From positions 1,240,001 through 1,304,000 of the forward strand of contig LSRY02000008.1 in NCBI GenBank assembly GCA_001643675.2: a stretch of 64,000 bases of DNA, written 5' to 3'. The position numbers and the translations under genes are program-made. Shown here in pieces: positions 29,556 through 60,631 of the stretch (positions are counted from its first letter, which is position 1; every line of letters starts with the position of its first letter). Under the pieces are notes generated by a model. That model was not told where the DNA came from. It ran no database searches and saw only the letters and a program-made list of their open reading frames with translations. This DNA comes from Monocercomonoides exilis PA203. Lineage: Eukaryota > Protista > Preaxostyla.

Positions 29556-31161
29556 TTCCTATTCTACTCGTGGTGATCACAACATCCTCCAATGAGAGTG
29601 ACCCACCCCCATCAGACACCACAACCACACTCGACGAAGAAGGATTTATATATGAGTTGCAATCAACTTTCATGTGTAATAAACCAAGGTGACCTGTTGA
29701 CACGCTGAATAGCGTTCCTACAGATAAAAGTGCTCCTGTTCTAATCGAACTCTCCGTCCTCCCTTTCCCAATGACTGAAATCTTCTTTTCTCCAATCTCA
29801 ATTGTTGTTGCCTCGCTTGTGTGATTCCCGTCCAGCAGCGTGATTGTCAAGCTAATCTGCACCTCGCACATCTCAAACGCTTTCTTCACTGTTTTACACG
29901 GATTTGACTCATTTGTCCCACAAAGTGGAGATGAATCATTTCCATTCACTGACACATAAATCGTCTTGTCCTTCAGCCAATCCCACTTTTCCGTGTGCTG
30001 ATATGTCCAACTCCCTGAACTCGACAAATTATATCCATAACATACTCTCTGGCCATCTGTGTTTGTTGTGTAACATTCATGGAACGGATTTCCTGAAGTC
30101 GAAATGACATTGTAATAATCATAATATATCACATCATGCCCATATGGATTGGAGGTTGTTCTGCATTTGCATTCATGGAAGAACAAAAAATAACAATAAA
30201 ATTTATCATTTGGCGCTGTTGCTCGATTTGGATACAATTCCAACCCTCCACCATATCCATTTGCTGTACATGAAATAAATTGAATGCTCCTCATTTTGAA
30301 CTGACTTGGAACAGTCACACAACGCATGCCTCCACCTCCATTGCTTGTCAATGAGCATGAAGTGAAGCAGCAGTCAAACACACACGCACTCTCCCCTCCC
30401 TCATTTTCTGTTTCAATGCAATCAGTTCCTGAAACATTAAAATAATCAAGATAAAGTCCTCCTCCAGCATTATTTGCTTTACAATTCTGGAATTCACATC
30501 CACTGATCCGAACACATGATGAAATCGTATAAACGAACACCCCTCCTCCATATCGATTTTGCGCATTACATGAATTGAACGTGTTATTCACAATCTCAAC
30601 CGATTTAATATTATAGCAACTAATACCTCCACCGCACCAATGCGCGACACATTCCTTGAATGCACAATGCGAAACTGAAACAGCGGCCGACGATTGACTG
30701 TGCATGCAGATGGCCCCTCCGCTTGACACTCCATCAGTCCACGAGTCACTTTCTCCTGTTGTCCTCGATCCGTTCCATTCGCACCAAGTGAATGAATTTG
30801 CTCCATTGAATGTTTCATTCTGTCTGTCTGGCTTCAATGGAACTTCTGCAGTTCCAGTGCATTCAACATTCCTTGTTCGATAACATCCAGTGAATGAGGT
30901 GTTTGAAGCTGTCAGAGAGGCCAAGGGATTGTTGATGGAGGGGACAATCCCGCCATCATATGCATCACAAACAGACGAAAAGGAGCAACTATTCATCAAA
31001 CATGATGTTTGGGATGACGTAGTGGTTGAAGGTGAGCATGCCTCATTTGCTGTTGAGATGTTGAAAAAAGTGAGTCTGGAGAGGGATATTAGGGGTATTG
31101 AAGGGGATGAAAGGAATGGGGCTGATGAGACACAAAAAGAAGAAAAGTGTGATTCGCTCAC
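29512..31161 (-). CDS. G3: Cys-rich beta-helix family protein, 549 aa, truncated at both ends (GTG start)
   Basis: Family motifs as in G1; ends shortly after SLSLEDVVITTS. Confidence 0.75.
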   Translation of the reverse strand: MSESHFSSFCVSSAPFLSSPSIPLISLSRLTFFNISTANEACSPSTTTSSQTSCLMNSCSFSSVCDAYDGGIVPSINNPLASLTASNTSFTGCYRTRNVECTGTAEVPLKPDRQNETFNGANSFTWCEWNGSRTTGESDSWTDGVSSGGAICMHSQSSAAVSVSHCAFKECVAHWCGGGISCYNIKSVEIVNNTFNSCNAQNRYGGGVFVYTISSCVRISGCEFQNCKANNAGGGLYLDYFNVSGTDCIETENEGGESACVFDCCFTSCSLTSNGGGGMRCVTVPSQFKMRSIQFISCTANGYGGGLELYPNRATAPNDKFYCYFLFFHECKCRTTSNPYGHDVIYYDYYNVISTSGNPFHECYTTNTDGQRVCYGYNLSSSGSWTYQHTEKWDWLKDKTIYVSVNGNDSSPLCGTNESNPCKTVKKAFEMCEVQISLTITLLDGNHTSEATTIEIGEKKISVIGKGRTESSIRTGALLSVGTLFSVSTGHLGLLHMKVDCNSYINPSSSSVVVVSDGGGSLSLEDVVITTSRIGSGTNEMFLPANIFD

Positions 31162-34100
31162 AGAAACTCTTCATTTTCCTATTTCTTCTTCCGCTTCTGA
31201 AATGCATATTCCCAAGAGAAAAGCATCTTTTCCCCTTTGTTCCGCTAAATGGAAACGGCATTCAAATGTTCTTCGTCATTAACTTTCCTTAAAATCCCCT
31301 TTTCTTCTGGGATCAAATTCTGCCTTCTCTCCTCATTCTATTCACTTCCATCGCTTTTGAAGGCTTATACAAACGTCCCTATTATCAATTGAAAAACATA
31401 TTTAATATTACAAAAATCTTAAAAATATACAAAAATATTAAATTGCAAAAAAATTTCAATAATAAATATGAAAAGCCCCGTACCATTTTCTTTTCACCAT
31501 CTTCCGCTTCTTCTTCTCAATTTTTCTTGAATTTCTTCTTCTGCTGCATCATCAATTCCTTGATCTCATTTTTGACTTTTAACAAGATTCATCGTATATG
31601 CCTTCCAAAACCTTCAAAAAAATATATCTTCTTCTCTTTTCCTTTCATTTATATTTTGCGTCCGCTCACTCCACCAAACGCCCTCCAATTATTATCTCCA
31701 GATTTCTTTTAATGCATCCAACATCCCCTCTTGACATATTCCTTGTTCATTCATTGCCATTGAGCAATCCTGCAAAAATCCTAATTTCATAAATAATAAT
31801 ATGTGAAGAAAAATTAAAATAATTTTAAAAAAAATGCAAACCTATATCTTTCACAATAACCACCTTTTGCTGACTTTTTCTTTCTTCTTCTTCTTCTTTT
31901 TAAAATATTAACAAAAGCTCAATCCTCTGTTCTGTTTCCACCCAAATAACCTCCACAAATTCCATTCCATAAAAAAACAAGCAATGAAGAAGATTCCATC
32001 CAAAGAATCCCTTCCTATCTCTTGCCAAAATCTTCTTCTTCTTCTCTCCATTTCCCCCCAAAACAACAACAATACCATCCCACCAAATATCACAATCCCT
32101 GTCTCCCCAGCTCCCATTCCCCTTCTTCCAACCAATAAAAATAAATATCTCCATTTCTTTGTATGTCTCTGGCGCAAAACATCTTCTCGTGGTCAGCACC
32201 TCATCTCGATCCATCCCTGTCACGAATCCATCTCCACACCTCTAATGCAAAGTGCCAGTGCTGATGTTCCTTCTTCCCGTCTTCCTCTGCCTCCGCCTCC
32301 AACACTTGCCCCGCAAATGAGAGGCGCGACCAAACTGTCCTTTCAATAAAAAATAAAAAAGATAAAAAAATATCTCTCACTTTTTTTCCCCTTCAACCCC
32401 GCTTCTCTTTCTTATCAAACATAAGCCCACAAAAACTTTTCCACCTTGCTCCGCCTCATATGAACTCCTCCTCTCTCTCTGCATTTGAAAATAAAAAAAA
32501 ATCTCCTCCACATATCTCTCCATTTCTCGTCCTCTCCTCCAATAAATATATTCCATTCGCTTCACCCATCTTCTGCCCTTCTTATCTTCCCTCTTATCCC
32601 ACCTCCAACACATCAAATTCCTTTTCTCAAATAATAAACACAATTCCCACACCTTCCAACTCACAAAAATCGAAAAACAATCCCTCCAAACCTCATCCCA
32701 ATCCATCTCCCAAACATCCATTTTGCCTCTGAAATATCACAAAAATACCTCTTTTCCACAAAAAATACCTTTAATCGTTCCATTCCCTCTCTAAACCCTG
32801 CCTCCTCCAAGAACTCAACTCCTTCACCCCACACCACAAATCCATCCTTTTACAACCACATTGTCTTCATATGCCCATTCAGCCACGGCACATCGAGTTG
32901 TGCTCCTTTTCTTTTGTGGCTCTTATTCGTTATGGAAAATGATCAAGAAATGTCAAACGCTCAGAAACTGTCAACGGGGTCAGATTCCGAAGCTAAAACA
33001 AAGGCAGATTGACTAAGTGAAATATTTCCAGTGAAAAGGTTGAGTATTACAAAAGAATATCTGTTTGATGGAAGATGAAATTGTTCATTTTGATTGTTGG
33101 AATACTGGGGAGCAACAATATTTTCGATGGAAATGCAGAATTTTCAATGTATGTATTTTATATTTTTCTGTTGATTGTGAAGATATTTCTATCCGTATCC
33201 TCTCCAAAGTCGTGATTCAGACAACTTATAAAAAATGGACAATCTATTCTTTGCAGAGCAGAACAGCGAGGAAGGGAGCCAAATGATACCTTACAAATAT
33301 ATTAGAGCCTGAATGTATTTTGTCATAAATATTTAAGTGACTTATTATAGACTCAGCATGCGCGATGGATAGAAATTTGATGAAAAATGAATTTTAATGG
33401 AGCAGAAATCAACGGGGTCGAAAGACATCCAAGGCCAAAAGGAAGAACAGCCAAATTCAATGAAAAGGGAACGTTTTTAAAAAGAGGAAGAGGACATTTT
33501 CATTTTTAAGTTTGTTGGGGAGATTGGGGCAAATGACTGAAACAGGAGATTAGAGACAGCTGCAGCAGAACAAGGTGCCTTTCTTGGGATGAGAAGGGCA
33601 AGACATTGCTTTTATGGACTGAGGGGAGCGATGGAACTGGATTAGATTACTTGGGTTGAGAGGCGAAAATACGAGAAAAACGGACAGTTTGGCGTTATAC
33701 AAGCAGCTGAGGAAAATTACAGGCAAAATGGATTTGAGTCATTTTGCCTTTGTCTTCAGCCTTATGTCATCGAAGGGTTATCCATTGAATCAGAGAACGA
33801 GGCCGTGATGCTGAGAATATCTTCTGACAGAAGGTATATAGTATTCAAACTTGACAATAACATCGCATTCACCATCTTCATCATCTTCATCTCTATCATC
33901 GCCATCATCGCTGTCATTATCTTCTTCTTCATTAAAAATTTTATTGAAGCATTTTTATTATTTGTGTATTATTTGAGTGGAATCAGCGCCAAGAATTGGA
34001 AAAAAGCAAATTTTTTGAAGCAGAACAGAATCGATTTCATTGATGTTGAGATTGGCAGCGGAAACAGAAAAGGCGAATTTTGTTGGCAGAAAAGAACAAT

Positions 34101-34464
34101 AATTTGAGAGGCTTTTGAAGAAGAAGAAAGTGTGTGAAGATTGGCAATAAATATATTTCAGAGTTTGTTTTGTATTATTTTTTTTCTCCAATTTTTCACA
34201 TATTTATTTTATATTTTTGAGGGATTAAGATTTATGGAAGGATGTTTTCAGGGAATGAATGAACATGGGGAAAAGAGCACATTGGATGCATTTCAGAAAT
34301 CAGGCAACACAATTTTTTTGAGAATATCGAAGAATGAGCCAGAGGTATTAAATGAAATGAATGGAAGAGGAGGGCTTTGAAGATTTATGTTGAATTTTGA
34401 AAAAGAAGGAGGGGAATCAACAGAAAAGAATAATCGGAAAATTGAAGAAATGGCTGAAGAAGAA
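31134..34464 (+). repeat. 3.3-kb inter-gene cassette, copy A (copy B 43273-46602 direct; copy C 54485-57818 inverted)
   Basis: Identical or near-identical ORFs at offset ~12138 (e.g. 31984/44121, 33805/45943) and mirrored at 56603-56968 and 54842-55144. Each copy separates a head-to-head pair of beta-helix genes. Confidence 0.95.
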
Positions 34465-34751: not shown

Positions 34752-36350
34752 TTGAGGTATTTTGTGAAATTTCACCAAGAGGCAAGGGAAAGAGAAGGAG
34801 GCGAAGATGGAAGTGTTTCGACATGCGAATCTCTTATCTCATCTTCAACAGCATTTCTTTCATCGCCTTCTATACCCCTAATATCCCTCTCCAGACTCAC
34901 TTTTTTCAATATCTCAACAGCACTTGATGTATATTCACCTGCAACCACAATGTCAACCCAAACATCATGTTTGATGAATAGTTGCTCCTTTTCGTCTGTT
35001 TGTGATGCATATGATGGCGGGATTGTCCCCTCCATCAACAATCCCTTGGCCTCTCTGACAGCCTCAAACACTTCATTCATTGGGTGTTGTCGGACAAGAA
35101 ACGTTGAATGCACTGGAACTGCAGAGGTACCATTGAAACCAGACAGACAAAACACAACGGATAATGGACAGAATACATTCACTTGGTGCGAATGGAGTGG
35201 ATCGAGGACAACAGGAGAAAGTGACTCGTGGACTGATGGAGTGTCAAGCGGAGGGGCCATCTGCATGTACAATCTCAATTCTGGAGAACTAACAGTTTCG
35301 CATTGTTCATTCAATGACTGCACTGCATACTACCATGGAGGAGCAATCATGTGCCATGCAATCAAGACGATCAAAATGGTGAGCAACGTGTTCAATTTGT
35401 GCACAGCACAAAACTATGGCGGGGGAGGGGTGTATGCTTGCCAAATAAGTTCATGTGCTCTTATCAGTGGGTGCGACTTCCAGATGTGCAAAGCAAGTTA
35501 CGATGGGGGAGGGTTGAGATTGGACAATTTTGGTGTGTCTGGATCAGGGTGCATTGGGGAAGAAGACGGAGAAGGAGGGAGCTCGTGTGTGTTTGAGTGC
35601 AGTTTCACTTCGTGTTCGCTGAATACAAATTGGGGTGGAGGAATGTATTGCAGAACTGTTCCTGCAGCATTCAAAATGAGGAGCATTCAGTTTATTTCAT
35701 GCTCGGCGATGGGATATGGCGGAGGTTTGCTTTTATATCCAAATCAACAAACAGCATCAAAAGATAGAGTTTATTGTTATTTTCTTTTCTTCCACGAATG
35801 CAAATGCTCAGCCAATTCTCCACTTGGCCACGACATTGTATATCTGGATTATTATAATATCATTTTGAATTCAGACAATCCATTTTATGAATGCTACACC
35901 ACAAACACAGACGAGAAGAGAGCATGTTATGGACATGATTATTCGAGTTTAACGGGTTGGACATTACAGGACACGGAAAAGAAGGATTGGCTGAAGATAG
36001 GGATTTTAAACCGATTTGTGGCATCGAGGGGAGGGAGCGCAGAAGAGTTTTGTGGGGCGAATGAATCATATGCATGCAGAACTATTGGTATTGCTGTTGA
36101 AAAGAGTGTGATTCAAGTGAGCCTATCGGTCACACTGATAGAAGGGGATCACGCAAGCGAAGCAACAACGATTGATATTTGGACAAAGAAGATTTCAGTT
36201 ATTGGGAAAGGGAGGACGGAGAGTTCGATTGAAACAGGAGCCCTTTCATCATCTTCTTCTTCCTTCTCATCTTCATCTACTCATTCTTTCTTCTTCCTGC
36301 AATTTTTCCTCAGAAAAAAAGTGATTCAACAGCTTCGGTTCATTTCATAA
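34752..36350 (+). CDS. G4: Cys-rich beta-helix family protein, 532 aa, mosaic, truncated at a poly-Ser tract
   Basis: Family motifs; 34942-35274 appears identical to G2 22672-23004; ends ETGALSSSSSSFSSSS then diverges. Confidence 0.78.
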   Translation: MRYFVKFHQEAREREGGEDGSVSTCESLISSSTAFLSSPSIPLISLSRLTFFNISTALDVYSPATTMSTQTSCLMNSCSFSSVCDAYDGGIVPSINNPLASLTASNTSFIGCCRTRNVECTGTAEVPLKPDRQNTTDNGQNTFTWCEWSGSRTTGESDSWTDGVSSGGAICMYNLNSGELTVSHCSFNDCTAYYHGGAIMCHAIKTIKMVSNVFNLCTAQNYGGGGVYACQISSCALISGCDFQMCKASYDGGGLRLDNFGVSGSGCIGEEDGEGGSSCVFECSFTSCSLNTNWGGGMYCRTVPAAFKMRSIQFISCSAMGYGGGLLLYPNQQTASKDRVYCYFLFFHECKCSANSPLGHDIVYLDYYNIILNSDNPFYECYTTNTDEKRACYGHDYSSLTGWTLQDTEKKDWLKIGILNRFVASRGGSAEEFCGANESYACRTIGIAVEKSVIQVSLSVTLIEGDHASEATTIDIWTKKISVIGKGRTESSIETGALSSSSSSFSSSSTHSFFFLQFFLRKKVIQQLRFIS

Positions 36351-36875: not shown

Positions 36876-38507
36876 CAAATAATTGAAGGAAAAAGAATCG
36901 CTTCAGCGTGCGAATCTCACTTCTTCTCTTTTTGTGTCTCATCAGCCCCATTCCTCTCATCCCCTTCAATACCCCTTATATCCCTCTCCAGACTCACTTT
37001 TTTCAACATCTCAACAGCAAATGAGGCATGTTCACCTTCAACCACTTCCTCATCTCAAACCTCATGTATGATATACAGCTGCTCCTTTTCATCAGTTTGC
37101 AACGCATATGATGGCGGAATTGTCCCCTCACTCAACAACCCCTTTGCATCTCTGGCTGTTTCAAACACCTCGTTTGTTGGATGTTGTCGGACAAGGAATG
37201 TTGAATGTGGAGGAACTGCAGATAATATTATAAAGCCAGATAGACAGAATGAAACATTCAATGGAGCAAATTCATTTATTTGGTGTGAGTGGAACGGATC
37301 GAGGACGACCGGAACAGAAAATACATGGGAAGACGTTGCTTCAAATGGAGGGGCCATCTGCATGCACAGTCAATCAAACGCATCAGTTTCTATTAAGCAC
37401 TGCTCATTCAATGATTGTTATGCCCATTATGATGGAGGGGGAGTTATGTGTGCAAAAATCAAATCTGTTGAAATTGAAAACAACTCATTCAACTCATGCA
37501 CCGCGCAAAATCAATGTGGTGGAGGGATGTGTATTTATGTGATTTCATCATGTGTTCGGATCAGCGGATGTGAATTTCGAAACTGTTCTGCTTATGGCTG
37601 GGGAGGAGGACTTTATCTCGAAAATTTTCAGGTTTCAGAAACAGGATGCATTGAAACAGAAAATGGAGAAGGGGAGAGTGCGTGTGTGTTTGACTGCAGC
37701 TTCACTTCATGTTCAGTTAAAAATTATTATGGCGGAGGCTTCTTTTGCCGATATGTGCCTGAACAATTCAAAATGAGGAGCATTCAGTTCATTTCATGTT
37801 CGGCATTAAAAGAGGGCGGGGGATTTTGGCTTTATCCTGCTCAATCAAAAGTACCAAATGACGCATTTTATTGTTATTTTTTGTTCTTTCATGAATGCAA
37901 CTGCTCATCCAATCCCCCTTATGGGCATGATATGATATATTACGATAATAACAATTTATATTTATCCCAAAATAACCCGTTCAAAGAATGCTACACAACA
38001 AACACAGATGACCAGAGGGTGTGCTACGGATATGATTATTCGAGTTCAAAAAGTTGGAAATTTCAGTACACAGAAAAGAAGGATTGGCTGAACGAATGGT
38101 CGAAGATTCTGTTTGTGGGGGTAAATGGAAGCGACTCGAGTGGGCTGTGTGGAATGGGCGAGTCGGCACCTTGTAAGACGCTGAGACATGCAGTGGAGAC
38201 GGGTTTGGAAGAGCTGAGCTCATCAATCACGCTGATGAAAGGGAATCACACAAGCGAAGCAACAACGATTGATATTTGGACAAAGAAGATTTCAGTTATT
38301 GGGAAAGGGAGGACGGAGAGTTCGATTAGAACAGGAGCACTTTCATCGATAAGAACGCTATTCAGTGTTTCGACAGGTCATCTGGGGATGAGAAAGCTGA
38401 AGATTGATTGTAACTCAACAGAAGGAACTTCACCGAGTATGGTTGTAGTGTCTTATAGAAGTGGAACACTTTCACTTGTGTCAAGAAGCGAGTTGGGCAA
38501 ATTATAA
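36876..38507 (+). CDS. G5: Cys-rich beta-helix family protein (first ATG 37068, 479 aa; family homology in frame from 36876), truncated
   Basis: The frame is open from a TGA at 36873-36875 through CESHFFSFCVSSAPFLSSPSIP... into the 37068 ORF. Confidence 0.78.
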   Translation, partial: QIIEGKRIASACESHFFSFCVSSAPFLSSPSIPLISLSRLTFFNISTANEACSPSTTSSSQTSCMIYSCSFSSVCNAYDGGIVPSLNNPFASLAVSNTSFVGCCRTRNVECGGTADNIIKPDRQNETFNGANSFIWCEWNGSRTTGTENTWEDVASNGGAICMHSQSNASVSIKHCSFNDCYAHYDGGGVMCAKIKSVEIENNSFNSCTAQNQCGGGMCIYVISSCVRISGCEFRNCSAYGWGGGLYLENFQVSETGCIETENGEGESACVFDCSFTSCSVKNYYGGGFFCRYVPEQFKMRSIQFISCSALKEGGGFWLYPAQSKVPNDAFYCYFLFFHECNCSSNPPYGHDMIYYDNNNLYLSQNNPFKECYTTNTDDQRVCYGYDYSSSKSWKFQYTEKKDWLNEWSKILFVGVNGSDSSGLCGMGESAPCKTLRHAVETGLEELSSSITLMKGNHTSEATTIDIWTKKISVIGKGRTESSIRTGALSSIRTLFSVSTGHLGMRKLKIDCNSTEGTSPSMVVVSYRSGTLSLVSRSELGKL

Positions 38508-41500
38508 ATGGAGAAATATTTATTTATTTTATTAAAATTTCTTTTTGCTCGTTAAACAAAAAGAAGTGACTTATTTATTTTGTAATAATCAATTTTATAT
38601 GAATTTTATTTTGTTTTTCTCCTGCATATTTAACAAGAAAATAGTTTTTGTTTTCTGTTTTAGTGATTGTGATTGTGATTGAAATTCTATTTTTGTTTTT
38701 GGGATTCTTTCTTTTCTTGATTATGCTCCATTTCCACTTTTTTGTTTCGTGTTGAAAGGCTTTGTGCAGCGGGGGGAAAAAAAATCAAAAATAAAAAGTA
38801 AAACAGAAAGAAAATGTGTTAAAGAGCTCTTTGACATTCAGGCAGAATCAAACATTGGAGATCGAGCTGGCTTGCTCCAGTGATTCCTTTTCAGTGTCCA
38901 TTTGTTGAACACAGAAAATGGTGATGGCTCTTTGTGTGTGAAAACCTGTGGAGCATGAGATGGCAAAGCTCCCAGCTGTGAAAAGACAAAGCTCATTCAA
39001 ATTCGAATGGAGAATGAAAAACGCATCAGCGTTGGCAAAATGGCTTCCAATGTGAAAATGAAGTTTTTGTCTTTGACAACAAAATGGAAAACAATGAACA
39101 AACACATGCAACTTCTAATTAGAGTATATTTTCATTGAGTCCTCAAATATCACTTTGACATTTTTTTTTTTTGTTTGATTTTTTTTTGAAACTTTGAAAA
39201 TCTTTTTCTGTGGTCTTCAATTATTTGTGGTTTGAATTAAAAAAATAAATATTAACTTCTTCATGACAATTATTCACCACATTCTCATCTGTGATTTTTC
39301 GAAAAATTTATAAGTGTGAAAAGAAAATAGTAATAAGTTTTATTATAATTTTGGTCCAAGATCAAAGATTTGCTTGTTTTCCCACTTATTTTTTATATCG
39401 GAGGTTTTGAGATTCAACATAACAACGCATCGTTTCATTTTCATAAACTGGATTTGTTTCTTGACTTTTTCATTGTCATTTCATGATTTACGCAAAATAT
39501 CTGGGAGATTCTTTTTGAAATCATAAACATTCATTTATTTTTGAAGAGTTTGGATCAAATCCTAATTTCGATGTCGCTGACGTTCTTTGTTTTATTTTAT
39601 TTTATTTTATTTTTTTCAAATGAATGTCCATTGTGCTTTTATTTGTGAACAACAACCAAAAATTACATGCAATCATCACTTTGATATTCTTTTTTGAAAT
39701 AACTCGTCCTTTCAAGTTTTTATCTTCATTTTATTTTTCTTCATGAGAATATTGAAAATACTGCAAAAGAACATGATTTTTGTTTTGTGAAGAAAACACC
39801 AAAAATAGTTCACGATGACAATTAATTTATGCAGGTGAAATGATGATTTCTCATATTTACTGTGACAAAGAAAAACAACATGTGAAGAAACACTTATTGT
39901 TATAAAAAGCTGACTGATCGAGAAATATCATTCTCTCACATTTAATATGTTTGAAAATACTGGTTTTGATATTGATGTGCAAGGGCTATTCTTTTTGAAA
40001 AGTCGCAAATGCCCAATATTTGGGCTTGATAAAACTATATAGGAAGTATTATTCCCATGTTGCAATTTATCTTATTTAATCCATGAATCAAACTTGAACA
40101 AAATACCCATTTGTTGAAATAATATTGTAAATATAATAGTGAGAAAACAACAATGTTCAAATGCGAATTGAAAAATTGTTATGTTTTATCAAACCAAAAT
40201 ATTCGGAATTTGCGACTTTTCAAAAAGAATAGCCCTTGCACATCAATATCAAAACCAGTATTTTCAAACATATTAAATGTGAGAGAATGATATTTCTCGA
40301 TCAGTCAGCTTTTTATAACAATAAGTGTTTCTTCACATGTTGTTTTTCTTTGTCACAGTAAATATGAGAAATCATCATTTCACCTGCATAAATTAATTGT
40401 CATCGTGAACTATTTTTGGTGTTTTCTTCACAAAACAAAAATCATGTTCTTTTGCAGTATTTTCAATATTCTTATTAAGGAAAATAAAATGAAGATAAAA
40501 ACTTGAAAGGACGAGTTATTTCAAAAAAGAACATCAAAGTGATGATTGCTTGTAATTTTTGGTTGTTGTTCACAAATAAAAGCACAATGGACATTCATTT
40601 GAAAAAAATAAAATAAAATAAAATAAAACAAAGAACGTCAGCGACATCGAAATTAGGATTTGATCCAAACTCTTCAAAAATAAATGAATGTTTATGATTT
40701 CAAAAAGAATCTCCCAGATATTTTGCGTAAATCATGAAATGACAATGAAAAAGTCAAGAAACAAATCCAGTTTATGAAAATGAAACGATGCGTTGTTATG
40801 TTGAATCTCAAAACCTCCGATATAAAAAATAAGTGGGAAAACAAGCAAATCTTTGATCTTGGACCAAAATTATAATAAAACTTATTACTATTTTCTTTTC
40901 ACACTTATAAATTTTTCGAAAAATCACAGATGAGAATGTGGTGAATAATTGTCATGAAGAAGTTAATATTTATTTTTTTAATTCAAACCACAAATAATTG
41001 AAGACCACAGAAAAAGATTTTCAAAGTTTCAAAAAAAAATCAAACAAAAAAAAAAAATGTCAAAGTGATATTTGAGGACTCAATGAAAATATACTCTAAT
41101 TAGAAGTTGCATGTGTTTGTTCATTGTTTTCCATTTTGTTGTCAAAGACAAAAACTTCATTTTCACATTGGAAACCATTTTGCCAACGCTGATGCGTTTT
41201 TCATTCTCCATTCGAATTTGAATGAGCTTTGTCTTTTCACAGCTGGGAGCTTTGCCATCTCATGCTCCACAGGTTTTCACACACAAAGAGCCATCACCAT
41301 TTTCTGTGTTCAACAAATGGACACTGAAAAGGAATCACTGGAGCAAGCCAGCTCGATCTCCAATGTTTGATTCTGCCTGAATGTCAAAGAGCTCTTTAAC
41401 ACATTTTCTTTCTGTTTTACTTTTTATTTTTGATTTTTTTTCCCCCCGCTGCACAAAGCCTTTCAACACGAAACAAAAAAGTGGAAATGGAGCATAATCA

Positions 41501-42922
41501 AGAAAAGAAAGAATCCCAAAAACAAAAATAGAATTTCAATCACAATCACAATCACTAAAACAGAAAACAAAAACTATTTTCTTGTTAAATATGCAGGAGA
41601 AAAACAAAATAAAATTCATATAAAATTGATTATTACAAAATAAATAAGTCACTTCTTTTTGTTTAACGAGCAAAAAGAAATTTTAATAAAATAAATAAAT
41701 ATTTCTCCATTTATAATTTGCCCAACTCGCTTCTTGACACAAGTGAAAGTGTTCCACTTCTATAAGACACTACAACCATACTCGGTGAAGTTCCTTCTGT
41801 TGAGTTACAATCAATCTTCAGCTTTCTCATCCCCAGATGACCTGTCGAAACACTGAATAGCGTTCTTATCGATGAAAGTGCTCCTGTTCTAATCGAACTC
41901 TCCGTCCTCCCTTTCCCAATAACTGAAATCTTCTTTGTCCAAATATCAATCGTTGTTGCTTCGCTTGTGTGATTCCCTTTCATCAGCGTGATTGATGAGC
42001 TCAGCTCTTCCAAACCCGTCTCCACTGCATGTCTCAGCGTCTTACAAGGTGCCGACTCGCCCATTCCACACAGCCCACTCGAGTCGCTTCCATTTACCCC
42101 CACAAACAGAATCTTCGACCATTCGTTCAGCCAATCCTTCTTTTCTGTGTACTGAAATTTCCAACTTTTTGAACTCGAATAATCATATCCGTAGCACACC
42201 CTCTGGTCATCTGTGTTTGTTGTGTAGCATTCTTTGAACGGGTTATTTTGGGATAAATATAAATTGTTATTATCGTAATATATCATATCATGCCCATAAG
42301 GGGGATTGGATGAGCAGTTGCATTCATGAAAGAACAAAAATAACAATAAAATGCGTCATTTGGTACTTTTGATTGAGCAGGATAAAGCCAAAATCCCCCG
42401 CCCTCTTTTAATGCCGAACATGAAATGAACTGAATGCTCCTCATTTTGAATTGTTCAGGCACATATCGGCAAAAGAAGCCTCCGCCATAATAATTTTTAA
42501 CTGAACATGAAGTGAAGCTGCAGTCAAACACACACGCACTCTCCCCTTCTCCATTTTCTGTTTCAATGCATCCTGTTTCTGAAACCTGAAAATTTTCGAG
42601 ATAAAGTCCTCCTCCCCAGCCATAAGCAGAACAGTTTCGAAATTCACATCCGCTGATCCGAACACATGATGAAATCACATAAATACACATCCCTCCACCA
42701 CATTGATTTTGCGCGGTGCATGAGTTGAATGAGTTGTTTTCAATTTCAACAGATTTGATTTTTGCACACATAACTCCCCCTCCATCATAATGGGCATAAC
42801 AATCATTGAATGAGCAGTGCTTAATAGAAACTGATGCGTTTGATTGACTGTGCATGCAGATGGCCCCTCCATTTGAAGCAACGTCTTCCCATGTATTTTC
42901 TGTTCCGGTCGTCCTCGATCCG
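37295..42922. repeat. Palindrome P2: arms 37295-40010 and 40208-42922 (~2.7 kb), tail-to-tail G5/G6
   Basis: Coordinate sums 80218/80217 (38507+41711; 38848+41370). A few SNPs (IGSHF/IGNHF) and a 1-bp homopolymer indel differ between the arms. Confidence 0.96.
39983..40235. mobile_element. 253-bp MITE-like inverted-repeat element at the exact centre of P2
   Basis: GGGCTATTCTTTTTGAAAAGTCGCAAAT...ATTTGCGACTTTTCAAAAAGAATAGCCC, with a further 21/25 imperfect pairing to 40035/40183. Same length and TIR family as the free element at 60379-60631. Confidence 0.8.
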
Positions 42923-43300
42923 CTCCATTCACACCAAGTGAATGAGTTTGCTCCATTGAATGTTTCGTTCTGCCTCCCTGGCTGTTTCTTATTAGTTTCA
43001 GTTCCAGTGCATTCAACATTTCTTGTCCGACAACACCCAACGAATGAAGTGTTTGAGGCAGTCAGAGAAACCAATGGATTGTTCAGAGAGGGAACAATTC
43101 CGCCATCATATGCATCACACACTGATGAGAAAGGGCAGCTGTTCATCAGGCATGTGGTTTGGGATGACGTAGTGGTTGAAGGTGAATAATCTGAAGATGC
43201 TGTTGAAATATTGAAAAATGTTTATTTGGAGAGTGAAACAAGAGATATGGAATGTGATGAGATAAAATTGGAAAAAAGAAGAAAAGTGTGATTCGCTCAC
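41711..43300 (-). pseudogene. G6: chimeric beta-helix gene (5' part = G9, 3' part = G5), split by a 1-bp deletion at ~42336-42340
   Basis: ORFs 42283-43146 and 41711-42346 overlap out of frame (A5 here vs T6 in G5). The N-terminus matches G9 up to WSGS, then matches G5. Confidence 0.85.
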
Positions 43301-46300
43301 AGAAACTCTTCATTTTCCTATTTCTTCTTCCGCTTCTGAAATGCATATTCCCAAGAGAAAAGCATCTTTTTCCCTTTGTTCCGCTAAATGGAAACGGCAT
43401 TCAAATGTTCTTCGTCATTAACTTTCCTTAAAATCCCCTTTTCTTCTGGGATCAAATTCTGCCTTCTCTCCTCATTCTATTCACTTCCATCGCTTTTGAA
43501 GGCTTATACAAACGTCCCTATTATCAATTGAAAAACATATTTAATATTACAAAAATCTTAAAAATATACAAAAATATTAAATTGCAAAAAATTTCAATAA
43601 TAAATATGAAAAGCCCCGTACCATTTTCTTTTCACCATCTTCCGCTTCTTCTTCTCAATTTTTCTTGAATTTCTTCTTCTGCTGCATCATCAATTCCTTG
43701 ATCTCATTTTTGACTTTTAACAAGATTCATCGTATATGCCTTCCAAAACCTTCAAAAAATATATCTTCTTCTCTTTTCCTTTCATTTATATTTTGCGTCC
43801 GCTCACTCCACCAAACGCCCTCCAATTATTATCTCCAGATTTCTTTTAATGCATCCAACATCCCCTCTTGACATATTCCTTGTTCATTCATTGCCATTGA
43901 GCAATCCTGCAAAAATCCTAATTTCATAAATAATAATATGTGAAGAAAAATTAAAATAATTTTAAAAAAAATGCAAACCTATATCTTTCACAATAACCAC
44001 CTTTTGCTGACTTTTTCTTTCTTCTTCTTCTTCTTTTTAAAATATTAACAAAAGCTCAATCCTCTGTTCTGTTTCCACCCAAATAACCTCCACAAATTCC
44101 ATTCCATAAAAAAACAAGCAATGAAGAAGATTCCATCCAAAGAATCCCTTCCTATCTCTTGCCAAAATCTTCTTCTTCTTCTCTCCATTTCCCCCCAAAA
44201 CAACAACAATACCATCCCACCAAATATCACAATCCCTGTCTCCCCAGCTCCCATTCCCCTTCTTCCAACCAATAAAAATAAATATCTCCATTTCTTTGTA
44301 TGTCTCTGGCGCAAAACATCTTCTCGTGGTCAGCACCTCATCTCGATCCATCCCTGTCACGAATCCATCTCCACACCTCTAATGCAAAGTGCCAGTGCTG
44401 ATGTTCCTTCTTCCCGTCTTCCTCTGCCTCCGCCTCCAACACTTGCCCCGCAAATGAGAGGCGCGACCAAACTGTCCTTTCAATAAAAAATAAAAAAGAT
44501 AAAAAAATATCTCTCACTTTTTTTCCCCTTCAACCCCGCTTCTCTTTCTTATCAAACATAAGCCCACAAAAACTTTTCCACCTTGCTCCGCCTCATATGA
44601 ACTCCTCCTCTCTCTCTGCATTTGAAAATAAAAAAAAATCTCCTCCACATATCTCTCCATTTCTCGTCCTCTCCTCCAATAAATATATTCCATTCGCTTC
44701 ACCCATCTTCTGCCCTTCTTATCTTCCCTCTTATCCCACCTCCAACACATCAAATTCCTTTTCTCAAATAATAAACACAATTCCCACACCTTCCAACTCA
44801 CAAAAATCGAAAAAACAATCCCTCCAAACCTCATCCCAATCCATCTCCCAAACATCCATTTTGCCTCTGAAATATCACAAAAATACCTCTTTTCCACAAA
44901 AAATACCTTTAATCGTTCCATTCCCTCTCTAAACCCTGCCTCCTCCAAGAACTCAACTCCTTCACCCCACACCACAAATCCATCCTTTTACAACCACATT
45001 GTCTTCATATGCCCATTCAGCCACGGCACATCGAGTTGTGCTCCTTTTCTTTTGTGGCTCTTATTCGTTATGGAAAATGATCAAGAAATGTCAAACGCTC
45101 AGAAACTGTCAACGGGGTCAGATTCCGAAGCTAAAACAAAGGCAGATTGACTAAGTGAAATATTTCCAGTGAAAAGGTTGAGTATTACAAAAGAATATCT
45201 GTTTGATGGAAGATGAAATTGTTCATTTTGATTGTTGGAATACTGGGGAGCAACAATATTTTCGATGGAAATGCAGAATTTTCAATGTATGTATTTTATA
45301 TTTTTCTGTTGATTGTGAAGATATTTCTATCCGTATCCTCTCCAAAGTCGTGATTCAGACGATTTATAAAAAATGGACAATCTATTCTTTGCAGAGCAGA
45401 ACAGCGAGGAAGGGAGCCAAATGATACCTTACAAATATATTAGAGCCTGAATGTATTTTGTCATAAATATTTAAGTGACTTATTATAGACTCAGCATGCG
45501 CGATGGATAGAAATTTGATGAAAAATGAATTTTAATGGAGCAGAAATCAACGGGGTCGAAAGACATCCAAGGCCAAAAGGAAGAACAGCCAAATTCAATG
45601 AAAAGGGAACGTTTTTAAAAAGAGGAAGAGGACATTTTCATTTTTAAGTTTGTTGGGGAGATTGGGGCAAATGACTGAAACAGGAGATTAGAGACAGCTG
45701 CAGCAGAACAAGGTGCCTTTCTTGGGATGAGAAGGGCAAGACATTGCTTTTATGGACTGAGGGGAGCGATGGAACTGGATTAGATTACTTGGGTTGAGAG
45801 GCGAAAATACGAGAAAAACGGACAGTTTGGCGTTATACAAGCAGCTGAGGAAAATTACAGGCAAAATGGATTTGAGTCATTTTGCCTTTGTCTTCAGCCT
45901 TATGTCATCGAAGGGTTATCCATTGAATCAGAGAACGAGGCCGTGATGCTGAGAATATCTTCTGACAGAAGGTATATAGTATTCAAACTTGACAATAACA
46001 TCGCATTCACCATCTTCATCATCTTCATCTCTATCATCGCCATCATCGCTGTCATTATCTTCTTCTTCATTAAAAATTTTATTGAAGCATTTTTATTATT
46101 TGTGTATTATTTGAGTGGAATCAGCGCCAAGAATTGGAAAAAAGCAAATTTTTTGAAGCAGAACAGAATCGATTTCATTGATGTTGAGATTGGCAGCGGA
46201 AACAGAAAAGGCGAATTTTGTTGGCAGAAAAGAACAATAATTTGAGAGGCTTTTGAAGAAGAAGAAAGTGTGTGAAGATTGGCAATAAATATATTTCAGA

Positions 46301-46602
46301 GTTTGTTTTGTATTATTTTTTTTCTCCAATTTTTCACATATTTATTTTATATTTTTGAGGGATTAAGATTTATGGAAGGATGTTTTCAGGGAATGAATGA
46401 ACATGGGGAAAAGAGCACATTTGATGCTTTTGAGAAAGCAGGCAACACAATTTTTTTGAGAATATCGAAGAATGAGCCAGAGGTATTAAATGAAATGAAT
46501 GGAAGAGGAGGGCTTTGAAGGTTTATGTTGAATTTTGAAAAAGAAGAAGGGGAATCAACAGAAAAGAATAATCGGAAAATTGAAGAAATGGCTGAAGAAG
46601 AA
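43273..46602 (+). repeat. 3.3-kb inter-gene cassette, copy B
   Basis: Direct repeat of 31134-34464. Confidence 0.95.
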
Positions 46603-46787
46603 TTTTGACAAAAATTCGAGAAGAAGAAGGAGGAGGAGAAAAGGAAGAAGATTGCAAAAAGAAAATGGAACTGGTTTTTCATATTTTGTATTACATTTTA
46701 AATATTTTTTATATTTTTTCTTTATATTTTTAATTGATAATAGGGACTTTTGCATGAATATTCAAAAGCGATGAATGCGAATGGAAT

Positions 46788-49115
46788 ATGGAAAAAAAGC
46801 AGAAAATTGAAACAAAAGGTAAAAAAGAGATGTGGGGAAGCCATGATGATCAGAAGGGGAAGAAGAAGCAGAAAAATGAGCACAGCCATATTGAGATATT
46901 TTGCAACGTTGTGCTAAAGGCGTTGAGAAGAGAAGGTTGCGTTGAAGAAAGAATTTCAGTGAATGAATCGCGTTTCTCATCTTCTTCCCCATTCTTCTTT
47001 TCACCTTCCATTCCCCTTATATCCCTCTTTCATTTGACATTTTTCAATATTTCAACAGCATCTTCAGATTGCCCATCTCCAACAATTACGTCAACCCAAA
47101 CATCAAGTTTTATGAATAGTTGCTCATTCTTGTCTGTTAATGATGCATATGATGGCGGAATTGTACCTTCACTCAACAATCCCTTGGCTTCTTTAACTGC
47201 CTCAAACACCTCGTTTGTGGGATGTTATCGGACAAGAAATGTTGTTTGCGAAGGAACTGCAGAAGTTCCATTGAAGCCAGACAGACAGAATGAAACATTC
47301 AATGGAGCTAATTCATTTATTTGGTGTGAATGGAATGGATCGAGTACGACCGGAACAAGCGATTCTATTTCAGATGGAATATCGAGTGGCGGGGCAATCT
47401 GCATGTATGGCCAATCAAATGCCACTGTTTCTATTAAGCACTGCTCATTCAACGACTGCTATGCCTATTATGATGGAGGGGGGGTCATGTGTGCAAAAAT
47501 CAAATCGGTTGAGATTATTAACAACACGTTCAACTCATGCACCGCAAAAACTTGGGCTGGTGGAGGGATGTGCATTTATACGATTTCAACATGTGTTCGG
47601 ATCAGCGGATGTGAGTTTCAGAAATGTTCTTCTTATGGCTGGGGAGGAGGACTTTATCTCGACAATTTTCAGGTTTCAGGAACAGATTGCATTGGAGAAG
47701 AAAATGGAGAAGGGGAAAGTGCGTGTGTGTTTGACTGCTGTTTCACTTCATGCTCAGTTACAAATTCGCAAGGTGGGGGCATGCGTTGTGCCACTGTTCC
47801 TGCAACGCAATTCAAAATGAGGAGCATTCAGTTTTTTTCATGTTCTGCACGGCAAGAAGGTGGAGGATTGTGTTTACATCCAAATCGAGCAACATCACAG
47901 AAAGATGTAATTTATTGTTATTTTTTGTTCTTCCATGAATGCAAATGCTCTGCAGCCACTCCATATGGGCATGATGTGATGTATTATGATTACTACAGTG
48001 TATATTTATCTCAAAATAATCCGTTCTATGAATGTTACACCACAAACACAGATGACCAGAGAGTGTGCTACGGATATAATTATACGGATTCTAAGGGTTG
48101 GACATATCAGCACACAGATAAGAAGGATTGGCTGAAGAGAGGGATTCTCAACCGATTTGTGGCAGTGAGTGGAGGTGGTGAAGAAGAGTTATGTGGACTG
48201 GATGAGTCAAGTGCATGCCGAACCATTGGTGTTGCAGTTGAAAAGAGCGTGATCCAGGTGAGCCTGTCAGTCACGCTGATGGACGGGAATCACACGAGCG
48301 AGACAACAACTATTAATATTGAGACAAAGAAGATTTCGGTCATTGGGAAAGGCAAAGATAAGAGTTCGATTGGAACAGGAGCCCTTTCATCAACTGGAGC
48401 GCTGTTCAGTGTGACAACAGGCCAACTTGGTTTATTGCACATGAAGGTTGATTGCAACTCAAATGCAAATCCTTCTTCGCCGAGCGTGGTTGTGGTGTCT
48501 GATGGGGGTGGGTCACTCTCGTTGGAGGATGTTGTGATCACCACGAGTAAAACAGGAGACTATGTGATGTCGTCGTCAGTGTTTGTGGTGCCGCTGTCGC
48601 AGCTGTCGATGGTTGATGTGGAGATAACAGATATGAATGTCTCAAAATCATTGTTCTCTGAGCCGGATCTCTCTTCTTCTTCTTCTTCTACTTCTTCTTC
48701 ATTGTCGTCATTGTCGTCATCTGCATTGTATCTGACAGCCACAGCATCAGGAGATAGCGTGCTGGCGAATGTGAAGGTGACGAATGTGAAGTTGACTGAA
48801 GGAGATGGGGTGGTTGTGGCAAAGAGTGTGAAGGCAGGAGAGACGTTCGGGATGATGAGCACGAGAACAGAAGGGGGGCAGAGTGGTTGTATGTTTGGGA
48901 AGGGCGATTTTGAGATGAATTTTTGGTCACATGTGAAATTGGAGGGAAGAATAAAAAATCATAAGTGCGTTGCGATTTTGTTTCTGTTTTGCTGCAACTC
49001 GTGCAACCCACATAAAATAAGCACCATCACTGCTGCAAAACTCGAAATCTCCTGTTTTATCGAGGAGCAGAAAATCGGGTTTATTTGTGAAAAGGAAAGG
49101 AAGAAAGGTGAGTAA
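46788..49115 (+). CDS. G7: Cys-rich beta-helix family protein, 775 aa (longest copy)
   Basis: Family motifs; extends to SSALYLTATASGDSVLANVKVTNVKLTEGDGVVVAKSVKAGETF, then degenerates. Confidence 0.8.
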   Translation: MEKKQKIETKGKKEMWGSHDDQKGKKKQKNEHSHIEIFCNVVLKALRREGCVEERISVNESRFSSSSPFFFSPSIPLISLFHLTFFNISTASSDCPSPTITSTQTSSFMNSCSFLSVNDAYDGGIVPSLNNPLASLTASNTSFVGCYRTRNVVCEGTAEVPLKPDRQNETFNGANSFIWCEWNGSSTTGTSDSISDGISSGGAICMYGQSNATVSIKHCSFNDCYAYYDGGGVMCAKIKSVEIINNTFNSCTAKTWAGGGMCIYTISTCVRISGCEFQKCSSYGWGGGLYLDNFQVSGTDCIGEENGEGESACVFDCCFTSCSVTNSQGGGMRCATVPATQFKMRSIQFFSCSARQEGGGLCLHPNRATSQKDVIYCYFLFFHECKCSAATPYGHDVMYYDYYSVYLSQNNPFYECYTTNTDDQRVCYGYNYTDSKGWTYQHTDKKDWLKRGILNRFVAVSGGGEEELCGLDESSACRTIGVAVEKSVIQVSLSVTLMDGNHTSETTTINIETKKISVIGKGKDKSSIGTGALSSTGALFSVTTGQLGLLHMKVDCNSNANPSSPSVVVVSDGGGSLSLEDVVITTSKTGDYVMSSSVFVVPLSQLSMVDVEITDMNVSKSLFSEPDLSSSSSSTSSSLSSLSSSALYLTATASGDSVLANVKVTNVKLTEGDGVVVAKSVKAGETFGMMSTRTEGGQSGCMFGKGDFEMNFWSHVKLEGRIKNHKCVAILFLFCCNSCNPHKISTITAAKLEISCFIEEQKIGFICEKERKKGE

Positions 49116-50410
49116 TTTGATGGAACATGAACGATTTATTTTTTCTTTGAAAAAAAAAGAGTATTCGAATTATTTTGCCATTTTCGATGTTTTGCAGAAA
49201 CAAAAAGTGGACAAGTTTCTTTGTTGAATCCTTCTTTTTTTTTTTCAATGAAAAAATTCATATGATTTTTATTTTTTCATTCATTAGCCAACTGCTTTTG
49301 AATGATTTTTTAGACTACAATAGTTATTAAAAATATATATCGATCTTTTCTTTTTCATTCTTTTTTTTTCAAATGAGATTTTCACAACATTTTTTTATTA
49401 CAAAATGAAAAAATCAAACAGTTCCCTTGTTTGAAAAGAAATATGAAATTTCGGAACAAACTGTTGAAGAACTTCAAAAATGATTTGTTGATGAACAAAC
49501 AAACAAATGGATGAATGAATGGATGAAAAACGCCAGACAATAGTATTTTCACAGCAACTGATGAATGAAAAAGGAAAACGATAACTTTTTTTTTGTATTT
49601 TTGTCAAATAATATCAAACTCTTCTGATTTATCAATCATTCATTTTCATTTTGACAGGGAGAAAAAATGAAAATAATTATTCATTGAGAAATCAGATGAA
49701 TTAGAAAATGGGTTTTATCATGATTTTGATGAGAAACATTTATCAAAATGAAAAATATGAATCAAAAAATAAATGAAATCTTTTTTATTAGAAATGATTA
49801 TTTTTCATTGATATTTAACTATATATCCTTTTTTATATCAACCATAAGGCACTCATTGGCTTTCAAAATCATGATTTCAAAATTAATCACCCATATTGAT
49901 TTTTTCCGAATTGAATGTTTGTTTTTTGTTTATTTTGTTTTCTTCTTCTTTTTTATCAAAACAAATTATTCTTTCACAAAACGATGAAAAAGAAGTTTTT
50001 GAAATTCATCAACACCGATTCATTTGTTCTTTTTATGTTTTTGTTTTCCAATTTCAATTTTGATAGTTTATTTTGATGAGGGAGGTTGTTCATCTTATCT
50101 CACAAGTTTTCTGTCAAAAACGTCGATTTGAAATTGAGATTGGGACACTTTGAAATGGACACTTGAAAGTGATAACAACATTGTGACAGTTCATTATTTG
50201 ACTTTTTCTTTCTCAAATAAAAAGTCTTATTAATAATTGAAAAGCCTATTTCACTTCTATTGAATATTCACAAATCAATCTCGAAAAGCTGTGTTATTAT
50301 CCATTCTCCAAATCATTTTCTGATCTCAAAAATCATTTTCCATATTCATCTCGATTATTACTTTTCATTTGGTTAAAAAAATAAGGATTCGGTTTTCTAT
50401 CTTATTTTAT

Positions 50411-50651
50411 AATGATTTATTTTTGAAATATCTCAAACGCGAAATTTTCATGCTATGTCGAACGTTTCTTATTCTTTTATCATTTTCACTTTTAAACTTT
50501 TTATTAAATCGAAAATAAAAAGTTTTGTTGAAATAATGAATATTCTATTTCTATCAACTTGAGTTGTTTCATGAGTTTGATCAAAAACCTTTGAAATAAT
50601 ACAAATAACATTTTGATTTCTTCATTAGCGACTTTTCAGAAAGAATAATGA
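50411..50651. mobile_element. Degenerate ~241-bp MITE-like element at the centre of P3
   Basis: Minus strand 50647-50623 reads TATTCTTTCTGAAAAGTCGCTAATG, nearly matching the TIR consensus. The symmetric left position reads ATTTATTTTTGAAATATCTCAAACG. Confidence 0.65.
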
Positions 50652-51971
50652 TATAATTGAGATAATAAATCAAATCCACAAATATAGAACCAAATGAAAA
50701 GAAATAATCGAGATGAATATGGAAAATGATTTGTGAGATCAGAAAATGATTTGGAGAATGGATAATCACGCGGCTTTTCGAGATTGATTTGTGAATATTC
50801 AATAGAAGTGAAATAGGCTTGTCAATTATTAATAAGACTTTATATTTGAGAAAGAAAAAGTCAAATAATGAACTGTCACAATGTTGTTATCACTTTCAAG
50901 TGTCCATTTCAAAGTGTCCCAATCTCAATTTCAAATCGACGTTTTTGACAGAAAACTTGTGAGATAAGATGAACAACCTCCCTCATCAAAATAAACTATC
51001 AAAATTGAAATTGGAAAACAAAAACATAAAAAGAACAAATGAATCGGTGTTGATGAATTTCAAAAACTTCTTTTTCATCGTTTTGTGAAAGAATAATTTG
51101 TTTTGATAAAAAAGAAGAAGAAAACAAAATAAACAAAAAACAAACATTCAATTCGGAAAAAATCAATATGGGTGATTAATTTTGAAATCATGATTTTGAA
51201 AGCCAATGAGTGCCTTATGGTTGATATAAAAAAGGATATATAGTTAAATATCAATGAAAAATAATCATTTCTAATAAAAAAGATTTCATTTATTTTTTGA
51301 TTCATATTTTTCATTTTGATAAATGTTTCTCATCAAAATCATGATAAAACCCATTTTCTAATTCCTCTGATTTCTCAATGAATAATTATTTTCATTTTTT
51401 CTCCCTGTCAAAATGAAAATGAATGATTGATAAATCAGAAGAGTTTGATATTATTTGACAAAAATACAAAAAAAAAGTTATCGTTTTCCTTTTTCATTCA
51501 TCAGTTGCTGTGAAAATGCTCTTGTCTGGTAATTTTCATCCTTTCCATATTTTCATCCATTCATCCATTCATTCATCCATTTGCTTGTTTGTTCATCAAC
51601 AAATCATTTTTGAAGTTCTTCAACAGTTTGTTCCGAAATTTCATATTTCTTTTCAAACAAGGGAACTGTTTGATTTTTTCATTTTGTAATAAAAAAATGT
51701 TGTGAAAATCTCATTTGAAAAAAAAAGAATAAAAAAGAAAAGATCGATATATATTTTTAATAACTATTGTAGTCTAAAAAATCATTCAAAAGCAGTTGGC
51801 TAATGAATGAAAAAATAAAAATCATATGAATTTTTTCATTGAAAAAAAAAAAGAAGGATTCAACAAAGAAACTTGTCCACTTTTTGTTTCTGCAAAACAT
51901 CGAAAATGGCAAAATAATTCGAATACTCTTTTTTTTTCAAAGAAAAAATAAATCGTTCATGTTCCATCAAA

Positions 51972-54299: not shown

Positions 54300-54484
54300 A
54301 TTCCATTCGCATTCATCGCTTTTGAATATTCATGCAAAAGTCCCTATTATCAATTAAAAATATAAAGAAAAAATATAAAAAATATTTAAAATGTAATACA
54401 AAATATGAAAAACCAGTTCCATTTTCTTTTTGCAATCTTCTTCCTTTTCTCCTCCTCCTTCTTCTTCTCGAATTTTTGTCAAAA

Positions 54485-60378: not shown

Positions 60379-60631
60379 GGGTCATTCTTTTCGAAAAGTC
60401 GCAAATGTTTAATTTTTAAGTTTTATAAAAATGTTCCTTATTTGATCATTTTTTGTAAAAATTCAATCAGATTTCTCCCTCATGCACTTTTTCTCACATC
60501 AAATAGGTTTTTGAATTCAAATTTAATATGTGACAAAGATTACAGTATTCAAAGAAATAATTGGTCAAAAAATGTTCAATTTCATAAAACCCAAAAATAA
60601 AACATTTGCGACTTATCAATAAGAATGACCC
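60379..60631. mobile_element. Free-standing 253-bp MITE-like element with ~50-bp imperfect TIRs
   Basis: Left GGGTCATTCTTTTCGAAAAGTCGCAAATGTTTAATTTTT; right end reverse-complement GGGTCATTCTTATTGATAAGTCGCAAATGTTTTATTTTT; flanked by ATTT on both sides. Confidence 0.8.

Follow-up and report, generated by a model that had tools for sequence, protein, structure and literature searches.

The locus and its question

How does one gene fragment come to match one relative exactly on one side of eight bases and another relative exactly on the other? The question is raised by G6, one of nine related reading frames (G1–G9) that lie on alternating strands across 16.8–59.4 kb of the window, the 64-kb stretch of Monocercomonoides exilis DNA that our DNA-level comparisons covered. 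The numbers run from left to right and match the G5, G6 and G9 of an earlier reading made from the letters alone (the sequence-only reading). Three palindromes, P1 (11779–29376), P2 (37295–42922) and P3 (42915–58176), carry the array. The named homologues of the G genes are M. exilis proteins; the homologue search gave 169 matches in all, and 44 of the 120 listed lie on the contig of G5 (1,962,414 bases). The left end of the window (1–11700) holds a long GAA/TTC low-complexity stretch with a strong strand skew. The features used below are as follows.

42915–42922, minus strand: switch interval of G6, coding strand CGGATCGA, codons S-G-S-R of W-C-E-W-x-G-S; outer edge of P2 and P3
41687–43266, minus strand: G6, mosaic beta-helix fragment, G9-type above 42915 and G5-type below 42922
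36921–38531, plus strand: G5, parent of the G6 3′ part; reading frame 37068–38507; predicted right-handed beta-helix
57825–59351, plus strand: G9, parent of the G6 5′ part; reading frame 57945–59351
37295–42922: P2, arms 37295–40035 and 40183–42922, spacer 147 nt
42915–58176: P3, arms 42915–50407 and 50655–58176, spacer ~205–247 nt
43273–46602: U2, copy of spacer S between the divergent fragments G6 and G7
54485–57818: U3, inverted copy of spacer S between G8 and G9
31134–34464: U1, copy of spacer S between G3 and G4, in no palindrome
29512–31161, minus strand: G3, mosaic fragment with a G7-like to G1/G4-like switch
34752–36350, plus strand: G4, fragment; 333 nt exact to G1/G2, up to the next conserved motif, GGAICM
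46788–49115, plus strand: G7, longest of the window's fragments, reaching residue ~860 of the full-length protein
51972–54299, minus strand: G8, inverted sister of G7
16760–18703, minus strand: G1, fragment, its 3′ part 96–97% identical to G7
22476–24419, plus strand: G2, inverted sister of G1 in P1

The switch in G6

The switch is present in the assembled sequence. Positions 42915–43591 of G6 are the exact reverse complement of 58176–57500 in G9 (677 nt), and positions 42922–42336 are the exact reverse complement of 37295–37881 in G5 (587 nt), with a further 1,166 nt of identity to G5 beyond one single-base gap. The two matches overlap in TCGATCCG (42915–42922), in the codons W-S-G-S-R. Elsewhere G6 departs from its parents only by single-base gaps in homopolymers, one of which breaks its frame at ~42336 in the window. 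In a three-way alignment 434 sites are informative (G5 and G9 differ and G6 agrees with one of them); the first 74 are of G9 type and the remaining 360 of G5 type, with a single switch, an ordering for which log10 P is −84.5 against random order. The sequence-only reading had described G6 as matching G9 upstream and G5 downstream, with the switch in a conserved motif just ahead of a variable loop, and had proposed such an alignment; the exact matches and the alignment agree with it on these points. The data support G6 as a recombinant whose 5′ part is of G9 type and whose 3′ part is of G5 type.

Identity between G5 and G9 falls from 85% over the 60 columns leading up to the junction to 63% over the 60 that follow. 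Over 180 columns the values are 77–85% before the 8-bp overlap and 57–65% after it, so the switch sits on a step in identity. The earlier statement that only 8 bp are shared is therefore right for perfect identity and wrong for homology, given the 85% and 63% flanks and the longer identical G5–G9 runs nearby, 20 nt just upstream and 26–30 nt downstream of the interval.

The G genes as fragments of a receptor-like family

Judged by sequence comparison, all nine G genes are fragments of an M. exilis family of ~2,300-aa receptor-like proteins. Our search for longer members turned up 57 proteins of 840–2,395 aa, 20 of them with PF07714; none of the 57 lies on the contig of the window. Intact relatives begin with a hydrophobic stretch, followed by a long ectodomain and a single membrane segment near residue 1,860; their kinase-like tail matches PF07714 at profile positions 160–258 only. 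The window genes map to residues ~240 to 690–860 of the full-length protein. G6 stops at about residue 740–760 of a 2,318-aa reference and no window gene reaches beyond 861. The N-terminal ~240 residues and the stalk of intact members have no match anywhere in the 64-kb window, and signal peptide, membrane anchor and kinase-like tail are absent from all nine genes. Examined as a working full-length receptor-like kinase, G6 thus lacks the N-terminal part, the stalk, the anchor and the kinase-like tail. It also has an in-frame stop (43222–43224) upstream of its first Met; in both G6 and G9 a stop is the 26th codon before the first Met. G6 may have a distant spliced leader exon. A weak 49-aa match to the cytoplasmic tail of the full-length receptors adjoins G1 and G2 on their downstream side, not G6 (16088–16234 and 24945–25091, E 2e-4 to 2e-3), and may be the remnant of an internally deleted gene.

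The same pattern is seen among the relatives. Among the matches listed, 80 of the 104 short relatives with a contig lie on four contigs. The N-terminal region is found in one of the 84 array proteins of the four contigs and the membrane segment in none, on gene models that may be incomplete; in the long proteins the counts are 15 of 30 and 24 of 30.

The predicted model of G5 is a right-handed beta-helix, with pLDDT mostly 80–96 over residues 50–290. In structural comparison every top match was a beta-helix (best Z 18.4, rmsd 3.5, 252 aligned); a Foldseek search with the model gave no match at E 0.001. Pfam gave no match on G5 and G9 and a weak Beta_helix match on G7. The fragments in the window are predicted to cover the N-terminal beta-helix (residues ~240–860). 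In the G5 model the switch of G6 falls at the end of strand 73–76, ahead of a 20-residue loop, so in G6 the opening turns of one beta-helix would continue into the remainder of another.

The reading frames of the fragments look kept. Substitutions between window genes number 2,211 at third codon positions against 1,343 and 1,117 at the other two; gaps in the domain are multiples of three, save the one base of G6, and six of the seven genes examined have no stop and domain gaps of three or six only. RNA runs X5–X8 share 14–22% of sequence words, an overlap that is no evidence of expression. The sequence-only reading had called G6 a new chimeric gene and had taken amplification to generate new domain combinations directly. 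Neither is supported, since G6 covers part of a single predicted domain, has an in-frame stop and lacks signal peptide, anchor and kinase-like part. It is probably not a new working gene, and it joins parts of one domain, not domains.

The W-x-G-S motif as an apparent switch point

The family alignment held 172 of 187 proteins (core of at least 300 aa), and the linkage scan used 119 of the 172, one subfamily, at 214 cuts. The correlation between similarity to the left and to the right of a cut is least at S-F-x-W-C-E-W-x-G-S-R-T (rho 0.02–0.04, against a median of 0.23 over the 214 cuts). The lowest four cuts fall in this motif, and at all four scan-window sizes between 8 and 20 the lowest cut lies within it. 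Permutation gave p 0.28 at the W-x-G-S motif, indistinguishable from no linkage, and 0.005 at five other motifs; pairs in the family scans are non-independent, and the permutation is a control for the comparison of motifs only. In the 27 proteins of at least 840 aa the motif is sixth lowest at one scan-window size and outside the six lowest at another. Because the loop after the motif is short and fast-evolving, mutation and not recombination may account for some of the low linkage. On these alignments the motif appears to be the usual switch point of the family.

Other mosaics bear on this. G3 switches from G7-like to G1/G4-like within about 30764–30795, in codons ending in the same GGATCGAG; it ends no palindrome, and its switch is placed only to ~30 nt. 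Further mosaic tracts occur in G1, G3, G4 and G7, and exact tracts between non-sister genes measure 333, 106, 89, 83, 77 and 69 nt. The first loop and turn of G9 recur at 94–100% in P0083, P0032, P0038 and P0050, with different 5′ parts, and the loop of G5 recurs at 88–94% in two relatives. Seven relatives are identical in sequence between NCBI and EukProt, which we take to hold an earlier annotation of them. Exchange through the conserved flanks of variable segments is found in DNA within the window and in protein outside it.

History of the palindromes

Two features expected of a fold-back are present in P2 and P3: inverted arms around a short spacer (147 nt and ~205–247 nt) and an outer junction inside homologous repeats. 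A third, arms identical up to the loop, is present in P1 and absent from P2 and P3; a fold-back at an older inverted repeat would likewise give diverged inner arms. The P2 arms differ by 10 substitutions, nine of them within 370 nt of the spacer, which leaves one in the 2.37 kb beyond. The P3 arms have no substitution in 42915–45360, then clusters, then falling identity near the centre. The substitution-free lengths adjoining the junction are 1.75 kb (P2) and 2.45 kb (P3). From their distribution the near-spacer differences in P2 and P3 would be older, and the two palindromes are not plainly one fresh event.

Spacer S, 3.3 kb between divergent genes, is present in three near-identical copies. 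U1 is exact to U3 in the right arm of P3 over 1,710 nt, and U2 in the left arm has six substitutions absent from U1 and U3; U1 is nearer to the right arm than the left arm is. Both ends of U1 lie in paralogous homology, the same kind of ends as in the other copies. U1 is outside any palindrome, so long tracts ending in family homology arise without palindrome formation. The ends of spacer S are 67% alike as inverted copies (43457–43695, 46578–46804). Upstream of the fragment, each contains a stretch that is AT-rich and intron-like and ends in TTGATAATAG; these ends could represent a leader exon or a small upstream gene.

In P1 the 3′ half of a Vps41-like gene (8897–15022) is duplicated, with three substitutions in 8 kb. 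The arms are exact over the 243 nt next to the 76-nt spacer, and on the outside the palindrome ends in a GAA/TTC tract adjoining the 3′ end of G3. P1 looks like the best candidate for a recent fold-back.

The junction and the assembly

The junction could be a product of assembly, either a mis-join or a mixing of paralogues during read correction, with the G9-5′/G5-3′ haplotype absent at this place. Contigs from four DNA runs, all of one sample and one study and possibly the source of the window itself, cover 30 of 30 bins of 41600–44600. None of the 32 listed contig pieces (of 4,344) spans the junction, which is therefore unproven at read level and confirmed in assembled sequence only. This would fit a mis-join, as would the lack of a record for the G6 reading frame in the protein collection and the state of exactly these arms. 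One-base homopolymer gaps of the window at 42335, 43585, 43753, 44491 and 44517 are filled in public contigs, the one at 43585 in all the depth of three runs. All five are likely sequencing errors, and the frame break of G6 is likely an error because the public contigs fill that gap. Such uncorrected errors mark the region as poorly polished, in line with the available text of PMC8767320, which reports weak polishing where the M. exilis long-read assembly is multi-copy. Contig depth in run X2, ~190–240 on G6 and 315–370 on the spacer, falls between the ratios expected with and without G6 and gives no copy number.

Against a mis-join stand (i) arm-specific substitutions that flank the junction only 4.2 kb apart (41174 and inward; 45361, 45363 and 46422–46438), which argue that the arms are separate copies; (ii) the little reason an assembler would have to join at 8 common bases between 85% and 63% stretches; (iii) the coincidence of the switch with the motif of lowest linkage in the family; (iv) mosaic relatives that carry the same sequence in two sources; and (v) arm substitutions some of which are short tracts of another paralogue's type. 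G8 is of G1/G2 type at 52662–52671, where G7 differs. We consider it quite improbable that the junction arose in assembly. An artefact of whole-genome amplification or of fold-back reads was also considered for P2 and P3 and is unlikely, given the clustered substitutions and paralogue-type tracts in the arms. In three runs the contig piece at 42806–42912 is roughly twice as deep as other G5/G6 pieces, which hints at further copies of the loop elsewhere. The gene model of G9 begins at 58236, directly past the shared part, and could reflect a break in an earlier assembly.

Origin of the junction

We propose that ectopic homologous recombination made G6 a mosaic, at a hotspot common to the family and in an array whose palindromes already existed, and regard the chances of this being right as evenly balanced. 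G6 belongs to two palindromes at once, as part of the right arm of P2 and of the left arm of P3, and a long conversion tract or crossover from one partner would have replaced one of its halves, ending where identity drops from about 85% to about 63%. Since G6 lies in both palindromes, one replacement event would have fixed both of their edges; one genome does not tell which half was replaced. In a dense array of 60–85% identical fragments, strand exchange would start in near-identical sequence and end at the drop in identity, or by re-invasion at the first good homology. Either way tract ends would collect at the motif before the first variable loop, and G6 would be the latest long-tract product. 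Within the pool of fragments, this would newly combine the first beta-helix turns with the loop and turns after them; it would not make a new receptor. Against this explanation, the substitution-free 1.75 kb and 2.45 kb are equally explained by a single recent copying event, and identical runs longer than the 8-bp interval lie close by.

The sequence-only reading had derived the junction from palindrome formation resolved by template switching between paralogues. Homology-driven exchange between paralogues is likely the cause of the junction; that it must date from palindrome formation is not supported, given the older differences within P2 and P3 and the switches of G3 and the wider family at the same motif away from any palindrome edge. 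The coincidence of the P2 and P3 edges is automatic, because overwriting either half of G6 sets both. The substitution-free arms and the fold-back look of P1 keep some probability with the earlier model, which in its best form we think possible and somewhat doubtful. In that form, an older inverted repeat at the centre of P2 would have folded back, and the copy made would have taken in the flank together with the 3′ part of G5; recombination or a template switch into the G9-type gene of the left arm of P3 would have closed the event, so that amplification and chimera were one event. The single substitution in P2 outside its inner 370 nt would fit this, as would a junction at the first higher-identity stretch met when copying G5 toward its 5′ end, and P1, with its exact sequence up to the spacer, partial Vps41 copy and GAA-tract end, resembles a fresh case. 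In the available text of PMC7467729, fold-back inversions of Saccharomyces cerevisiae are usually stabilised by homology-mediated rearrangement, mostly at homologous repeats. The model however requires a pre-existing 370-nt, 97% identical inverted repeat, itself an old palindrome, and genes that end no palindrome switch at this motif too. Only a 25-nt match links the centres of P2 and P3. One-step excision and inverted re-insertion of the G5–G9 segment, which predicts alike centres, was rejected on that ground.

The 8-bp spacer size of tyrosine recombinases is the length of the overlap, and a site-specific recombinase, for example the product of the tyrosine-recombinase-like frame at 62753–63778, might cut at this core. 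Five non-sister genes share an invariant GGATCGA, which includes a TCG serine codon, and the phage-integrase-family frame lies 3.4 kb past G9 (E 3.6e-08). However, no inverted arms surround the core, where at most 6 of 19 positions pair, and there are tracts that end at different motifs. Nor is the core exceptional: 36 of 91 conserved four-fold codons have an invariant third position, and there are 19 other invariant runs of at least 7 nt. We rejected 42915–42922 as a tyrosine-recombinase target site for its lack of inverted binding arms, and hold cutting by a recombinase to be extremely improbable. The frame itself (minus strand, PF00589) is probably derived from a mobile element; small imperfect inverted repeats lie near it at 60378–60632 and 62374–62464.

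Fragments and full-length receptors

By analogy with known systems, the palindromic arrays might be an archive of variable beta-helix cassettes that rewrite the tips of receptor-like kinases by gene conversion, which we judge unlikely. We would give no greater weight to the further proposal that the cassettes are renewed by inverted duplication and reshuffled at fixed motifs. The copies are clustered and cut down to the variable region, on gene models that may be incomplete. In full-length proteins the domain is 52–63% alike where stalks are 22% alike, and 56–82% alike where stalks are ~80% alike; selection on the beta-helix core could also compress identity. The best fragment match of long proteins changes from segment to segment. 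With equal pools, the best match of a segment of a long protein is a fragment in 46%, a tie in 18% and another long protein in 35% of cases, and 17 of 19,085 fragment–long comparisons give segments at least 94% alike, both at protein level and for part of the family. Near-identical segments number 6–18 per 1,000 comparisons within or between related arrays, against 0.7–1.5 between fragments and long proteins, where they fall mostly in one 17-residue loop; P0071 counts as an array gene in this comparison and as 'other' in the alignment and permutation work. This low sharing, and fragments being hardly better matches than other long proteins, speak against an archive.

Three observations touch on these genes. 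P0136 (full-length, kinase-bearing) and the fragment P0025, on one contig of 1,861,174 bases, share four successive variable segments at 94% or more and are a candidate donor–recipient pair; P0136 is also the long protein closest to the first loop of G5. In the full-length relatives P0131–P0187 the kinase-like tail is 81–87% alike (median) and the stalk 22–39%, with almost no correlation between the two (rho 0.14–0.30), and the tail seems to be exchanged between subfamilies as well. Consecutive locus tags among the matches listed (MONOS_14206–14211, 14446–14448, 14690–14694, 15577–15579, 15866–15868 and 15873–15875), together with 'c2' suffixes, suggest more arrays and palindromic duplicates on the four contigs.

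Discussion

The comparisons that follow draw on the available parts of the sources cited. P2 and P3 resemble yeast fold-backs (PMC7467729) in their inverted arms, short spacer and outer junction between homologous repeats. They differ in that their inner arms have diverged, they overlap in one gene, and the junction site is used where no palindrome ends. Palindromes of primate X chromosomes, with arm-to-arm gene conversion (PMC8327919), are alike in arms of >99% identity, gene-family members and change near the centre; in contrast, the arms of P1–P3 are 2.7–8.5 kb, the palindromes abut or overlap, and tracts come also from non-sister paralogues. Avian IGH pseudogene arrays share with the window alternating strands, incomplete copies of a variable domain and inverted duplications of a few kb, and their donors feed an expressed gene by somatic conversion (bioRxiv 10.64898/2026.09.05.749481). 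In M. exilis the fold is a predicted beta-helix, full-length genes are many and dispersed, and a donor role is putative. Anaplasma msp2/p44 (PMC11946796) is alike in truncated variable-region copies that recombine through conserved flanks and among themselves, and the Borrelia vls and trypanosome VSG archives can be likened in the same way. Unlike in all three, the M. exilis fragments share near-identical segments about ten times more with each other than with the sampled full-length genes, and the full-length proteins are receptor-like with a kinase-like tail and no known single expression site.

Tyrosine kinases are given in the available text of PMC6759080 as the largest family in M. exilis (320 of 332 kinase-like). 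By their PF07714 match, the full-length relatives belong to this family, which overlaps the 'unclassified repeats' (PMC6759080, PMC8767320). The ectodomain, the fragment arrays and mosaicism are not described in the available parts of these two papers; there, 'palindrom' and 'inverted' occur 0 times in PMC8767320, and 'pseudogene', 'antigenic' and 'tandem' 0 times in PMC6759080. The part of PMC10703272 available holds nothing on this receptor-like family. A literature search, within the texts available to it, gave no description of such arrays in oxymonads; supplements of the genome papers could hold family tables.

The junction alone is likely ordinary recombination between paralogues. Less ordinary is its setting: dozens of one-domain fragments in palindromic arrays with a common switch point, beside dispersed patchwork receptors. 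Some of the 'unclassified repeats' and hypothetical genes of M. exilis can be read concretely through these arrays, which also warn that gene models of fragments inflate gene counts. Were the arrays indeed an archive of cassettes, they would be a diversity generator for signalling receptors in an oxymonad, built like an avian IGH pseudogene array, and G6 would be a cassette caught directly after reshuffling. They open a direct test of whether an oxymonad diversifies its surface receptors from a pool of cassettes.
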